Positions 3,225 through 11,201 of a DNA stretch of 11,459 nucleotides are shown in pieces. This stretch comes from a virus. Made by a program: the position numbers and the translations under genes. Location of the stretch: the UHGV virus genome UHGV-0179154. One strand, given 5' to 3'. The notes below the pieces were generated by a model that was not told the DNA's origin, made no database searches, and saw only the letters and a program-made list of their open reading frames with translations. How positions within the stretch are numbered: the first letter of the stretch is position 1; each line of letters begins with the position of its first letter.

Positions 3225-3941
3225 ATGGAAAATAAAAAATCACTGACGACAGAACAGCTCGAAGACGCTAAGCGGCTTAAGGCTTTGTATGAGTCAAAAA
3301 AGAAAGAATTGGGAATAACCCAATACTCAATCGCTGATGAACTGGGTATCACCCAAGGAGCGGTAGGGCATTATCTTAATGGCAGAAACGCGCTAAACGT
3401 TGAGGTCGCATCTGGTTTTGCACGTTTGTTGCAAGTCTCAATTGCTGATTTTAGCCAGTCAATTGCTGCCAAGGTTGCAGAACAGGCAGAAAGCCTTAAG
3501 AGCGATGCCAACGTAAGGTATGCAGGGGAATACAGAGCAGGAAAGAGGTATCCGGTGTTAAGCAGTATCCAGGCTGGCTCGTGGTGTGAAGCATGCGAAC
3601 CATACACCATTAAAGACATAGATGTTTGGCTTGAGTCTGACGCGCATATTCAAGGCAATGCGTTCTGGCTTAAAGTGGAAGGTGATTCAATGACGGCACC
3701 GGTTGGGTTAAGCATTCCAGAGGGAACATTCGTTCTTTTCGATACCGGAAGGGAGGCGATCAACGGCAGCCTGGTCATAGCAAAACTTTCTGACTCTAAC
3801 GAAGCAACATTCAAGAAGCTGATAATCGACGGCGGAAATAAATACCTCAAGGGACTTAACCCTGCATGGCCTCTCGTGCCAATCAATGGAAACTGCAAGA
3901 TTATAGGCGTTGCAATTGAGACAAAACTAAGGCTGGTTTGA
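3225..3941 (+). CDS. cI: CI-like repressor (HTH N-domain plus LexA/S24-like autocleaving C-domain)
   Basis: 238 aa; N-terminus LTxEQLEDAKRLKALYE resembles lambda CI; candidate Ala-Gly cleavage site in SSIQAGSW; GDSM serine and FKKL lysine motifs present. Confidence 0.85.
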   Translation: MENKKSLTTEQLEDAKRLKALYESKKKELGITQYSIADELGITQGAVGHYLNGRNALNVEVASGFARLLQVSIADFSQSIAAKVAEQAESLKSDANVRYAGEYRAGKRYPVLSSIQAGSWCEACEPYTIKDIDVWLESDAHIQGNAFWLKVEGDSMTAPVGLSIPEGTFVLFDTGREAINGSLVIAKLSDSNEATFKKLIIDGGNKYLKGLNPAWPLVPINGNCKIIGVAIETKLRLV

Positions 3942-3960: not shown

Positions 3961-4329
3961 ATGGTTGGAACCGCTATAGCAAGCTTTTTTGGGATGTTGG
4001 CAATCTCAACAATTTACGGCTTAGCGCATGCTTTTATTGCGAAATCTCTATCAGAAAAAATAAGCCAGGCTTGGGCGCATAGATCAGCTCGTTTCATGAT
4101 TCTAGTGGTCATAGCAATACAAGGGATATCTGCATTTATCCTCTATGGATCAAGCTTATACCTGTTGTATCAAGGCGCGACATTTACGCCTTACACCAGT
4201 GATTACGGAACTCTATACGATGGTAGTGAAGACATCTCTATGGCTTGGATCGTCTTTGGTTTATCTATGGCCGTGTCTGTTGTAGCAGACATCATTAAGG
4301 TAATTCTCGTCTTAACCTTCGCTGACTAA
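3961..4329 (+). CDS. Small membrane protein with three predicted TM helices, co-transcribed with cI (rexAB position)
   Basis: GGGGGA 5 nt upstream of ATG at 3961, 19 nt after the cI stop; three hydrophobic stretches (aa 3-27, 45-70, 94-120); no recognisable family. Confidence 0.6.
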   Translation: MVGTAIASFFGMLAISTIYGLAHAFIAKSLSEKISQAWAHRSARFMILVVIAIQGISAFILYGSSLYLLYQGATFTPYTSDYGTLYDGSEDISMAWIVFGLSMAVSVVADIIKVILVLTFAD

Positions 4330-4587: not shown

Positions 4588-4899
4588 AACCAAAGAGTAG
4601 TTGGCTTAGGGGTGACGTGAAGTGCAGCTGCACGACGGCAACCGGAAGATAAGCACCCGGCGCGTCACCGCCAAAGTCAATTCCATAGGCGAAATGCAGC
4701 CGCCAAACACAGCCAATGCTGCACATGCAACAGGAGGATTTATGTGAATGCATAACTTCAAAACCGAGGTTAATTAAATCTCTCGATCCGAGCATCGACC
4801 TATTAGGTGGCGAGATGCTCTTTCTGCCCCTCAGTTCGAGGGGCCAGAAACCACTTTGCAATCACTATCAATTCCAAAGTTGTTTCATCGGAGGTCAAC

Positions 4900-5172
4900 A
4901 TGACAGTAGTCATTACATATCTGGCTGACGATAACGCCAGAAATCGCCGCAGAGCACGCAGACAGGCTAAACGTGAACAGGCAATGCAAGAGCAGCGACT
5001 GGCGCGAAAAATTGCGCTAAAGCTCTCTGGTTGCGTCAGAGCAGACAAAGCAGCATCACTCGGAAGCCTTCGCTGCAAAAAGGCAGAAGAATGCAGTGGA
5101 AGTATTTGCCTGCCAAACGTAGCCATTTACGCGGCAGGCTACCGGAAATCAAAACAACTGACGGCGAGGTAA
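4900..5172 (+). CDS. N: N-like transcription antiterminator (arginine-rich motif)
   Basis: GGAGG 5 nt upstream of ATG at 4900; N-terminal NARNRRRARRQAKREQA resembles the lambda N arginine-rich motif; first gene after PL/nutL. Confidence 0.65.
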   Translation: MTVVITYLADDNARNRRRARRQAKREQAMQEQRLARKIALKLSGCVRADKAASLGSLRCKKAEECSGSICLPNVAIYAAGYRKSKQLTAR

Positions 5173-5175
5173 GTG

Positions 5176-5400
5176 ATGAATCAGACATACATTCCATCAT
5201 GCTTGAGAAATCTGCCAAAGCAGAAAGCAAAGCCCCGCAAGCAAGCCATAAAGGACGCTAAGGCAGAGGTTATTGATCAAGCAATACAATTGCTCAGGGA
5301 GGAGTTAAGAAGTGGCAAGCTCGAAGGAATGATGATGCCCTATCAGCGCGGATATCTATCGGCGATTAGTAAGTTGGAAGTATTGAAGAGTGAATTATGA
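5176..5400 (+). CDS. Hypothetical protein (74 aa), translationally coupled to N
   Basis: GAGG 6 nt upstream of ATG at 5176, 3 nt after the N stop; no recognisable family. Confidence 0.5.
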   Translation: MNQTYIPSCLRNLPKQKAKPRKQAIKDAKAEVIDQAIQLLREELRSGKLEGMMMPYQRGYLSAISKLEVLKSEL

Positions 5401-5462
5401 ACTATCTGGAATTTCCGGATGGTTCATTGTTTTGGCAGCAAACCACTTATTTGAGGTGAGAT

Positions 5463-5933
5463 ATGACAATATCATGGAGCGTACCTTTTCCTGAATCAGA
5501 AACTGAACATGATGGAATGCCTGTTTTCTGGAGATTCCAGGCGACAGTTGAAGAAGATGGAATCAAAATATTCGCACTTCAATATATAGCTTTTCATCAG
5601 ACAGAGCATTATGCATGGTTGGTTCCTGCGCATTGGATTGTTAATTTTAAACCAGCACCAAATCAGTGGTTACAGGAATGGAAACAAAAGAGAAATAGAT
5701 ATGCAATTAAGAAAGTAGCAAAAAATGCAGAAAGATCTTTTGCATTCCCAACGAAGAAACTTGCCATTGAGAGTTTATTGCGCCGGAAGAAATACCATTT
5801 AATTAGAATCAAACAAGATTTGGCTGTTGTATCAACTCTTGTTGATGGGATGAAGAATATTGATACATCAACACCAGATATTGAATATAACTTTGGACAC
5901 AACCAAGAAACAGAAAATTGGGTATTCTACTAG
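5463..5933 (+). CDS. Hypothetical protein (156 aa) in AT-rich island
   Basis: GAGGTG upstream of ATG at 5463; followed directly by an intrinsic terminator; no recognisable motifs. Confidence 0.55.
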   Translation: MTISWSVPFPESETEHDGMPVFWRFQATVEEDGIKIFALQYIAFHQTEHYAWLVPAHWIVNFKPAPNQWLQEWKQKRNRYAIKKVAKNAERSFAFPTKKLAIESLLRRKKYHLIRIKQDLAVVSTLVDGMKNIDTSTPDIEYNFGHNQETENWVFY

Positions 5934-5957
5934 GCCGCATAGTCGGCCTTTATTTTT
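5932..5957 (+). terminator. Rho-independent terminator after the 156-aa ORF
   Basis: Stem AGGCCG/CGGCCT (5932..5937, 5944..5949), 6-nt loop, then TTTATTTTT. Confidence 0.6.
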
Positions 5958-5979
5958 GGCATAAACAACAGAGGCTAAC

Positions 5980-6276
5980 ATGGAATTTAAAGGTACTAAA
6001 GGTAAGTGGGAAATAATGATGGATGGCGATGAGATTAAAATCATCCAGGCAGACTCACTTGAAAATGGCGCAGGCTGGCGTTCGTATATTGCAATCTGTG
6101 AGGAAGTTCAATGTATTGAAGATGCCAATCTAATAGCGGCAGCACCTGACCTTCTCGAAGCACTTCAGTTATTACTTAAGCAATCCAAAAATAGAACAAC
6201 GACAACATATCCAGAATGGTATGGAGCTGTTAATAAAGGTCTTGCAGCAATCAGAAAAGCTCTTGGGGATAAGTAA
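5980..6276 (+). CDS. Hypothetical protein (98 aa)
   Basis: AGAGG upstream of ATG at 5980; stop overlaps the next start (TAATG). Confidence 0.5.
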   Translation: MEFKGTKGKWEIMMDGDEIKIIQADSLENGAGWRSYIAICEEVQCIEDANLIAAAPDLLEALQLLLKQSKNRTTTTYPEWYGAVNKGLAAIRKALGDK

Positions 6277-6464
6277 TGAAAGTAAAAATAACTGCTTCTA
6301 ATACCAGTTTTGTTAGTGTTGGTGATATTACAGAAGTAATAACAAACCATGATGGAACACAAGTTATGTGGTCTGATTTTTGTAAAAGATATGAGCGAGT
6401 TAGTTGGTGTAAAAACGTATGGGGAGTCGAATACGAAGAATTACCTGAAATGCATGACGAATAA
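6276..6464 (+). CDS. Hypothetical protein (62 aa), coupled to the upstream gene
   Basis: ATG overlaps the upstream TAA (TAATG); no recognisable family. Confidence 0.45.
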   Translation: MKVKITASNTSFVSVGDITEVITNHDGTQVMWSDFCKRYERVSWCKNVWGVEYEELPEMHDE

Positions 6465-6469
6465 GCGCT

Positions 6470-6497
6470 GTGTATTCATTACAACGAGTGAATACAC
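6470..6497. repeat. Perfect 9-bp inverted repeat GTGTATTCA-N10-TGAATACAC
   Basis: Arms at 6470..6478 and 6489..6497, immediately 3' of the 62-aa ORF stop. Confidence 0.5.
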
Positions 6498-6558
6498 GGA
6501 GCAATGTCGCTCGTAACCAAACAGGAGCCGACTTGTTCTGATTATTGGAAATCTTCTT

Positions 6559-6587
6559 TGCCCTCCAATGTGAGGGCAGTTTTTTTT
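6559..6587 (+). terminator. Rho-independent terminator
   Basis: Stem TGCCCTC/GAGGGCA (6559..6565, 6572..6578), 6-nt loop, then TTTTTTTT (6580..6587). Confidence 0.65.
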
Positions 6588-6600
6588 GACGGAGTAAACG

Positions 6601-6849
6601 ATGATAAAAACTGATTACCCTGCAGAGCTTAAACAAAAAGTAATAACAGCAATTAAATGCTCTTTTATCTCATGTCGTACAGATGAAGAACGATATGTCG
6701 TTGAGTGTGCAATTGTCGAGTTTCTCACAGCGATGGAATTTACCGCTGCAGAATCAATAGATGTATTAAAGCAATCAGACGGAAATGATATTGAAACGGA
6801 TGATGTTATTGACCGACTAATAAAATCATTCGAAGAAGAAATAGAGTAG
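6601..6849 (+). CDS. Hypothetical strongly acidic protein (82 aa)
   Basis: GGAG upstream of ATG at 6601; about 20 Asp/Glu versus 9 Lys/Arg by hand count, with acidic C-terminus DDVIDRLIKSFEEEIE. Confidence 0.5.
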   Translation: MIKTDYPAELKQKVITAIKCSFISCRTDEERYVVECAIVEFLTAMEFTAAESIDVLKQSDGNDIETDDVIDRLIKSFEEEIE

Positions 6850-6931
6850 CCGCCAAGCGCGGCTTTACCGCATACCAATAATGCTTCACGAGAGGCATTT
6901 TCGTTATGCAATCAAACAGAAGGAGTTACCC

Positions 6932-7066
6932 ATGATGCACTTTCAGCTCGCGGGTAGCGGCGTCATGTCCGCTTTCTACCCGCACGAATCTGAATTATCA
7001 CGCCGAGTTAAACAATTAATCAGAGCAGCAAAGAAACAACTGGAGGCGTTATGCGCAATGAAATAG
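6932..7066 (+). CDS. cIII: CIII-like protein (putative FtsH inhibitor, 44 aa)
   Basis: AAGGAG 6 nt upstream of ATG at 6932; MMHFQLAGSGVMSAFYPHESELSRRVKQLIRAAKKQL resembles the lambda CIII core as I recall it. The track start at 6881 has no Shine-Dalgarno. Confidence 0.5.
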   Translation: MMHFQLAGSGVMSAFYPHESELSRRVKQLIRAAKKQLEALCAMK

Positions 7067-7203
7067 CCATCAATCACCAGATACTTCGTGCAGCACAAAA
7101 CAAAGCAGTAATAGCCAGATTTATTGGTGATTCCAAAATGTGGCTTGAAGCAAATAAAGCGATGAAATCAGCTATCAACCTTCCGTGGTATCGCAGGAAA
7201 TGA
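7051..7203 (+). CDS. kil: Kil-like small protein (50 aa), tentative
   Basis: GGAGG 4 nt upstream of ATG at 7051; ARFIGDSKMW resembles the lambda Kil segment ATFIGDEKMF as I recall it; overlaps the cIII-like 3' end by 16 nt; sits just upstream of the recombination genes as in lambda. Confidence 0.4.
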   Translation: MRNEIAINHQILRAAQNKAVIARFIGDSKMWLEANKAMKSAINLPWYRRK

Positions 7204-7278
7204 GTTTTACAGATAACTGGTCAGACGAAGAATTCATTCGTCAGATGAAAGAATTAATCGGTAACGAAGGAGATATTC

Positions 7279-7449
7279 ATGTCACTTGCAACCACAGTGA
7301 AGGAGAGCAAGTTACAGAGACGCATGTACACGCAGAAAGCTCTCTGGTATCGCCATAATGGCGACCGCGAAGGAATGCGGGTATGCCTTAATTTGTCACG
7401 AGTCGAAGTATTAAATCAGCGTTATTTCCTTGGGCCGTGTCCATTCTGA
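7279..7449 (+). CDS. Hypothetical protein (56 aa)
   Basis: AAGGAG 6 nt upstream of ATG at 7279; hand-translated MSLATTVKESKLQRRMYTQKALWYRHNGDREGMRVCLNLSRVEVLNQRYFLGPCPF. An alternative 52-aa ORF (7200..7358) overlaps in another frame. Confidence 0.35.
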   Translation: MSLATTVKESKLQRRMYTQKALWYRHNGDREGMRVCLNLSRVEVLNQRYFLGPCPF

Positions 7450-11033: not shown

Positions 11034-11201
11034 ATGCACTTCCGAGTCACAGGTGAATGGAATGGAGAGCCATTCGACAGGGTTATCGAAGCAGAGGACA
11101 TCAACGACTGCTATAACCACTGGATGATATGGGCGCAGATAGCTCATGCAGACGTAACCAATATTCGAATTGAAGAACTGAAAGAACACCAAGACGCCTG
11201 A
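11034..11201 (+). CDS. Hypothetical small protein (55 aa)
   Basis: GGAG upstream of ATG at 11034; hand-translated MHFRVTGEWNGEPFDRVIEAEDINDCYNHWMIWAQIAHADVTNIRIEELKEHQDA; terminator follows. Confidence 0.4.
   Translation: MHFRVTGEWNGEPFDRVIEAEDINDCYNHWMIWAQIAHADVTNIRIEELKEHQDA

Follow-up and report, generated by a model that had tools for sequence, protein, structure and literature searches.

The 82-residue acidic protein encoded at positions 6601-6849 of UHGV virus genome UHGV-0179154, an 11,459-nt stretch of DNA that was analyzed whole and is referred to here as the window, belongs by sequence to no characterized family, and its gene appears to be one allele of a polymorphic accessory slot, located between PreS/tL2a and cIII in the pL operon of lambdoid phages. 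The product was predicted to be a free-standing, compact four-helix bundle in which the hairpin of helices 3 and 4 would form a conserved acidic face. We considered that such a protein would act stoichiometrically as an electrostatic decoy, binding a protein of the host or of a resident prophage and blocking on it a basic surface that probably serves to bind nucleic acid. The reading we favor, held tentatively and with somewhat less than even confidence, is that this early acidic decoy may serve as a counter-defense or anti-exclusion factor, in a role analogous to that of P22 gp17, and not as a general blocker of the Ocr/ArdA type.

The window covers the early region of a lambdoid (HK97/HK446-like) phage or prophage, in which genes for a DnaB-like helicase, an O-like replication protein, and cII-like and cro-like proteins lie on the minus strand. 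The features on which the analysis relied are the following.
3225-3941, plus strand: LexA/CI-type repressor gene.
4807-5172, plus strand: N-like antiterminator gene, a homolog of N.
6465-6587, plus strand: homolog of the lambda ral-ea10 intergenic region (PreS/tL2a), about 97% identity, 123 nt.
6558-6587, plus strand: tL2a-like terminator, with a hairpin at 6558-6579 and a run of eight Ts at 6580-6587.
6591-6594, plus strand: Shine-Dalgarno sequence GGAG, 6 nt 5' of the ATG of the 82-aa gene and inside the 5' cassette boundary TTTTTTTGACGGAG.
6601-6849, plus strand: acidic-protein gene, ATG start, 82 aa.
6848-6870, plus strand: 3' cassette boundary, hairpin AGCCGCCAAGCGCGGCT followed by TTTACC.
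6932-7066, plus strand: cIII homolog (the listed ORF starts at 6881).
7051-7203, plus strand: kil homolog, part of the operon context.

The early-left operon contained, in order, the N-like gene, four small genes, the 82-aa gene, cIII, kil, a small 'recombinase' ORF, Erf, and SSB, followed by an exonuclease and further small genes up to a Xis-like ORF. The start of cIII was placed at 6932 because of the Shine-Dalgarno sequence AAGGAG at 6920-6925 and a PHROG match to residues 18-60. The four small genes between N and PreS (5173-6464, plus strand) matched phrog_5305, phrog_1636 (the homolog of HK97 gp45), phrog_1273, and phrog_10407, and terminator-like hairpins at 5397-5427 and 5932-5949 follow two of them in this hypervariable stretch. 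Farther upstream, directly after the CI-type repressor gene, a 122-aa hydrophobic ORF (3961-4329, plus strand) occupies a rex/sie-type exclusion-gene position; its product is probably a membrane protein and gave no PADLOC match.

In lambda, the ral-ea10 intergenic region encodes the Hfq-dependent sRNA LPR1/PreS, which ends at terminator tL2a (bioRxiv 10.1101/2024.10.31.621285). A scan of the window with Rfam returned no family at threshold, and the PreS homolog was therefore recognized only through the literature and the alignment with lambda. Conservation of the PreS/tL2a element extends to hundreds of phage records, including those with other genes on its flanks. The ATG of the 82-aa gene lies 13 nt after the tL2a-like terminator and cIII is the next gene, which places the 82-aa gene in the position of lambda ea10 and not in that of ral. 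No plus-strand promoter was found between 4501 and 7206. By analogy with lambda, the N-like antiterminator would be needed for read-through of the terminator at 6558-6587, and transcription only by N-modified RNA polymerase reading through tL2a would make the gene delayed-early. An earlier note on this DNA, written from the sequence alone, had taken the gene to be expressed early, and its position agrees with that view, as it follows an N homolog and an intrinsic terminator within the pL operon.

The same note had proposed a small, strongly acidic protein and a candidate DNA mimic, with about 20 acidic and 9 basic residues counted by hand. The count proved exact (8 Asp and 12 Glu; 6 Lys and 3 Arg), and the computed pI was 4.27 with a net charge of -11.5 at pH 7. 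The charge was polarized along the chain, with about -2 in residues 1-47 and about -10 in residues 48-82. The acidic C-terminal tail described in the note was recovered in part: the sequence EEEIE is present, but it was modeled as the end of helix 4 and not as a free tail, and it is not kept in the family, most homologs ending near residue 79. The GC content of the gene was 35%, against 46.6% for the window. Two further plus-strand ORFs of the window, 7185-7358 (net charge about -9 over its 52-aa ATG-start version; a match to phrog_2123, 'recombinase') and 11034-11201 (about -8 over 55 aa), had a charge density equal to or above that of the 82-aa protein. Acidity alone discriminates poorly, because small acidic proteins are common in the pL operon.

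An exhaustive HMMER search returned 17 representative relatives, and a profile search returned 52 homolog clusters with about 30-68% identity. Family members are about 75-90 aa long and are encoded by phages and prophages of Escherichia, Salmonella, Klebsiella, Citrobacter, Pantoea, and Enterobacter. All full-length members were strongly acidic (net charge -8.5 to -20.5), and the acidity singled out in the earlier note is thus conserved in the whole family, with a mean charge of -3 in the part corresponding to residues 1-47 and -9.9 in the C-terminal 35 residues. Residues A17, C25, G61, and D67 were invariant and E40, A44, L56, and D71 nearly so; the columns that were at least 70% acidic were 40, 49-51, 65, 67, 68, 71, and 79. 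Close copies of the gene (DNA identity of 95% or more) were found in phages HK446, ECP1, and Kapi1. Among 5426 complete E. coli genomes, 58 had such a copy, which was chromosomal in every case. A shorter, divergent relative of 74 aa occurs in Buchananvirus-like phages, namely SeSz-2 (BFVD A0A411BGY7) and a second phage in which it is the third gene of an early operon (L015 5001-5225); at 25% identity, it was predicted to have the same fold as the 82-aa family (TM 0.80-0.88).

AlphaFold2 with a 34-sequence family alignment gave a four-helix bundle (pLDDT 91.5, pTM 0.80) with helices at residues 7-23, 28-44, 49-58, and 64-81; the prediction was confident only with the family alignment, the single-sequence model being poor (pLDDT 59). 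On a helical wheel, one side of helix 4 was hydrophobic (I64, I70, L73, I74, F77, and I81), and the opposite side carried D67, D68, D71, E78, E79, and E82. Both the charge surface and the clustering of residues discussed here were derived from the helix topology and helical-wheel reasoning. In the monomer model, the conserved acidic residues would lie on an exposed face of helices 3 and 4 extending over an estimated 20-25 Å, and we infer an acidic ridge composed of the acidic side of helix 4 and the acidic N-terminus of helix 3. C25 in loop 1, G61 in loop 3, and D67 at the beginning of helix 4 should come together at the same end of the bundle, which suggests a specific site besides the diffuse charge. 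A high, conserved net negative charge on a small stable fold is a property that the protein shares with DNA mimics; conserved acidity in such a fold is necessary for DNA mimicry and is not sufficient for it.

Fold searches with the model returned generic helical bundles only. Foldseek against the PDB gave nothing at E < 1, and the BFVD search returned the protein's own family plus the 25%-identical relative in SeSz-2; Ocr, ArdA, Im7, and any other known mimic were absent from the fold-search matches. Sequence searches led to the same picture: the 82-aa protein had no Pfam match at E ≤ 10 and the 34 members none at E ≤ 0.1, the ArdA and Ral models included; NCBIfam gave no match, and no PADLOC defense-protein model matched at E ≤ 0.01. 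Comparison of the family profile by hhalign gave probabilities of 0.06% with lambda Ral, 0.3% with Ocr, 0.2% with gp17, and 0.14% with Ea10. A PDB search with the single sequence found only a weak match to Im7 (phmmer E 0.23-0.9), and with the family profile this match was gone and only noise (RAP80, SUMO) was returned. Colicin immunity of the Im7/Im9 type was accordingly set aside: the match was lost with the profile, these proteins were not among the top fold matches, and no cognate nuclease gene is adjacent, the neighbors being PreS/tL2a and cIII. An EF-hand or metal loop at residues 60-71 was likewise dropped on inspection, as its spacing misfits the canonical motif.

The sole family match was phrog_14587, labeled 'anti-restriction protein' (E 2.2e-48, residues 1-82 of 82), and it indicates membership of a sequence cluster only. 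RefSeq carries the same label on the HK446 and Buchananvirus records, and the ECP1 record reads 'antirestriction protein ral'. Neither an experiment nor homology to a known anti-restriction protein was traceable as a basis for these labels; the 'ral' label of ECP1 appears to be a positional mis-transfer, and 'anti-restriction protein' seems to spread through PHROG-based re-annotation. The gene is already catalogued, as PHROG 14587 and as a member of a published library (see below), but the labels 'anti-restriction protein' and 'ral', which now spread in RefSeq and PHROG-based annotation of this family, are unsupported. The main texts of the literature searched contained no mention of the protein by its sequence, accession numbers, or PHROG identifier.

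A four-way alignment of the slot in the window, HK97, H-19B, and HK446 revealed the limits of the cassette. In HK97 the slot is empty: the terminator runs straight into the cIII leader, and only sequence 3' of the boundary is present. In H-19B a P22-type gene 17 stands between the same boundaries as the 82-aa gene, and the gp17 and 82-aa cassettes have in common the 5' sequence TTTTTTTGACGGAG, which includes the Shine-Dalgarno sequence, and the 3' hairpin AGCCGCC(T)AAGCGCGGCTTTACC. In both cassettes, this GC-rich hairpin directly follows the stop codon. To judge from the alignment, the common boundary sequences (6588-6600 and 6848-6870) look like a recombination-defined module junction.

The 82-aa gene was present in only 5 of the 326 phage records that match the flanks. 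The slot was also surveyed in 110 IMG/VR loci with the 3' sequence of PreS, which were not dereplicated, so that the counts are only indicative: it was empty in about 50, and the occupant was Ea10 in 36, a 322-aa coiled-coil protein in 10, gp17 in 4, a 138-aa protein in 3, the 82-aa protein in 3, and a 106-aa protein and an HNH-like endonuclease in 1 each. No BLAST links (1e-5) were found among the five small slot families (Ea10, gp17, and the 82-aa, 138-aa, and 106-aa proteins), and all five were acidic (pI 4.1-4.65, net charge -10 to -17). That unrelated alleles at one precisely bounded slot are uniformly acidic is the more interesting by-product of the analysis. Gp17 has been reported to release P22 from Fels-1 exclusion (PMC4837284, citing Susskind and Botstein 1978). 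The anti-defense role proposed in the earlier note found support to this extent: the slot of the gene is a hypervariable accessory one that adjoins known counter-defense loci, and one alternative occupant of this slot is reported to relieve exclusion.

Outside this slot, homologs were found in phages of unrelated types, where they invariably had a place among small early or accessory genes. The homolog of a Pantoea prophage lies farther along the early-left operon, between Erf/SSB and xis/int, and in other E. coli prophages it is found among DUF551, Ead/Ea22-type, and exonuclease genes. On a 44-kb Citrobacter phage-like contig it comes after a primase-helicase gene and a 350-nt spacer with promoter-like and repeated sequences; upstream of this homolog, a tandem direct repeat (GTAATTTAGTACCTCGGCAGC, two copies, L011 2417-2768) has an operator-like look. 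In the virulent Buchananvirus (Sf11-like) siphophages of Salmonella, E. coli, and Klebsiella, the homolog heads a short operon amid structural genes, directly after a near-consensus sigma-70 promoter (TTGACG-17-TATAGT; Sa179lw, L008 3765-4000), and is followed by genes for a small acidic protein and a ParB-like protein and, in one phage, a DNA methyltransferase. The acidic protein encoded directly downstream of the Buchananvirus homolog has 63 residues, and two metagenomic proteins, P0031 (122 aa) and P0058 (85 aa), are fusions of it with the N-terminal portion of the family protein (compare L008 4001-4455); these fusions may be assembly or frameshift artifacts, or may hint at joint action of both products. 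No partner gene was conserved across the lambdoid, Pantoea, Citrobacter, and Buchananvirus contexts, and the 82-aa protein therefore appears to work alone. In its genomic distribution, the family behaves as an autonomous, horizontally mobile, early accessory gene.

The 82-aa protein is identical to gp36 of phage HK446 (AFH20664.1), and its exact sequence is entered as UDP0194 (JQ086372.1 25659..25411) in the gene table that supplements Silas et al. (bioRxiv 10.1101/2023.04.06.535777); it was therefore, as orf194, one of the 200 accessory genes screened. As described there, the genes were expressed from the chromosome of wild ECOR strains under IPTG control; conditional lethality was assayed, and sensitization to 8 model phages was followed in 45 combinations of phage and host that were attenuated. 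Among the genes that scored were Ocr, Ral, and ArdA, all three as type I R-M inhibitors, together with six novel genes and IpII; in some of the strains, Ocr and ArdA caused anti-anti-restriction cell death as well. In the text, legends, and structure files of that study, orf194 is absent from the named counter-defense and cell-death hits, though a weak effect may have gone unreported, and no general toxicity of its expression is reported; nor is it mentioned in a later Nature Communications paper that used the same library. Gp17, which is orf144 of the library, is not among the reported hits either. By contrast, orf184 of the same library, which comes from the ral accessory region and has 107 aa and a pI of 4.09, is described as triggering the abortive system gop-beta-cII of P4. 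As far as these reported hits go, the lack of a phenotype for orf194 counts against the decoy reading, and the exclusion relief reported for gp17 from the same slot and the response to orf184 from the same region count for it.

A serious alternative, in our judgment an unlikely one, is that the protein is a non-immune host-takeover factor, whose acidic face would inhibit or redirect a housekeeping protein (for example a nucleoid-associated protein such as H-NS or HU, RNA polymerase, a protease, or a replication factor) in favor of lytic growth or of one outcome of the lysis-lysogeny choice. Its neighbors cIII and kil, in the same operon, encode small host-modulating proteins, cIII acting on FtsH and Kil on FtsZ, and a compact helical bundle with a predicted conserved acidic face would suit such a role. 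The absence of orf194 from the counter-defense hits named in the published screen points the same way, whereas the absence of reported general toxicity upon expression points the other way. A housekeeping target predicts wide conservation, but the gene is rare, being carried by the 5 of 326 flank-matching phages noted above and by about 1% of the E. coli genomes, and it swaps with unrelated alleles or with nothing, which is an arms-race pattern.

Less probable is a role in binding a cation or metal, or as a chaperone for, or regulator of, another protein of the phage, with Cys25, Asp67, Asp71, and Glu51 as the ligand site. In its support, the positions that are invariant (A17, C25, G61, and D67) are specific ones and not diffuse charge, the family is rich in cysteine (1-6 per about 80 aa), and its N-terminal part is found in the two metagenomic fusions with the 63-aa Buchananvirus protein. 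We regard this as improbable: only one of the cysteines is invariant and member P0043 has a single one, no metal-binding motif or family was matched, and no phage gene was a conserved neighbor across the four contexts.

The Ocr/ArdA-like logic of the earlier note, taken here to mean that a dimer of the protein would imitate B-form DNA and block type I R-M (and perhaps BREX) enzymes, fared poorly and is in our estimate very improbable. In its favor are a composition of 24% acidic residues, a net charge of -0.13 per residue (against -0.10 for Arn and -0.24 for Ocr), early expression, a location in the ral/ea10 accessory region, and the PHROG and RefSeq label. That label, however, is the one without traceable basis, and neither sequence nor fold similarity was found to Ocr, ArdA, Ral, or solved DNA mimics. 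The monomeric 82-aa bundle would also fall well short of the length of DNA that a type I enzyme covers. Type I anti-restriction activity found no support in the hits reported by Silas et al., where Ocr, ArdA, and Ral scored and orf194 is named for neither phenotype, and general blockade of type I R-M systems is disfavored because of this negative result, as far as it is reported, together with the lack of structural resemblance. DNA mimicry in a wider sense, by which an acidic surface would fill a nucleic-acid-binding cleft, is a possible mode of action.

That the ORF is non-functional, either a chance ORF in an AT-rich spacer or the shadow of a real antisense gene at 6615-6911, is excluded despite the low GC content of the segment and the overlapping 98-aa ORF on the minus strand (almost certainly a by-product of the codon composition of the acidic gene), as homologs at 30-45% identity keep the length and pattern, the AlphaFold2 model is confident, the Shine-Dalgarno sequence is correctly spaced, and comparison with a 68%-identical homolog gave pN 0.19 against pS 0.79, synonymous sites being saturated.

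A counter-defense decoy, our preferred reading, would represent a new small fold among phage immune antagonists and a new family within a known kind of phage protein, and would offer a handle on an E. coli or prophage exclusion system. The slot alleles (Ea10, gp17, orf194, and others) form a compact, experimentally tractable set. A bolder extension, which we put forward as speculation and consider doubtful, is that the slot after PreS/tL2a might be a dedicated 'acidic decoy' locus, with at least five unrelated, interchangeable alleles that would each neutralize a different prophage or host exclusion or defense protein by electrostatic mimicry of nucleic acid. On that scheme, the 82-aa family would be a mimic with a new fold, none of the ECOR strains and model phages screened to date would possess its target, and the module would have been borrowed by the virulent Buchananvirus as its first early gene.

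Compared with known systems, the protein stands at varying distances. Lambda Ral comes from the same hypervariable early-left region, but it is basic (pI 8.8), unrelated in sequence, and encoded 5' of PreS/tL2a, on the N/sieB side, whereas the 82-aa gene lies 3' of it. The colicin E7 immunity protein Im7 (about 87 aa) resembles the 82-aa protein in size, acidity, and its four helices, and is the protein to which the weak phmmer match was obtained. Im7 is a DNase inhibitor that blocks the DNA-binding cleft of the nuclease, and the blocking of such a cleft is the kind of mechanism proposed here for the 82-aa protein.

T7 Ocr and ArdA, too, are produced early by mobile elements and are small and highly acidic (pI about 4). 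They differ in that neither a sequence nor a fold match was found, in that they scored in the screen of Silas et al. where no hit is reported for orf194, and in shape, the predicted 82-aa monomer being a compact bundle and Ocr and ArdA elongated, DNA-shaped dimers. Orf184 of the same study, from an mEp-type phage, is likewise an acidic accessory protein of the ral accessory region and was part of the same library; its sequence is different, and it triggers the P4 gop-beta-cII system, whereas no phenotype is reported for orf194.

Lambda Ea10 is the positional equivalent, its gene being the first one 3' of PreS/tL2a and lying 5' of cIII, and is also acidic (122 aa, pI 4.28, net charge -14); it is unrelated in sequence and is the commoner occupant of the slot (36 of 110 loci against 3 of 110). 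P22-type gp17 (H-19B gp17; P22 gene 17) differs in length, has no detectable sequence relationship to the 82-aa protein by hhalign or BLAST, and carries a reported anti-exclusion phenotype that is not known for the 82-aa protein. Unlike in these respects, gp17 occupies the same slot between PreS/tL2a and cIII within the same cassette boundaries, and it too is a small, equally acidic early accessory protein of the pL operon (103 aa, pI 4.1, net charge -14).
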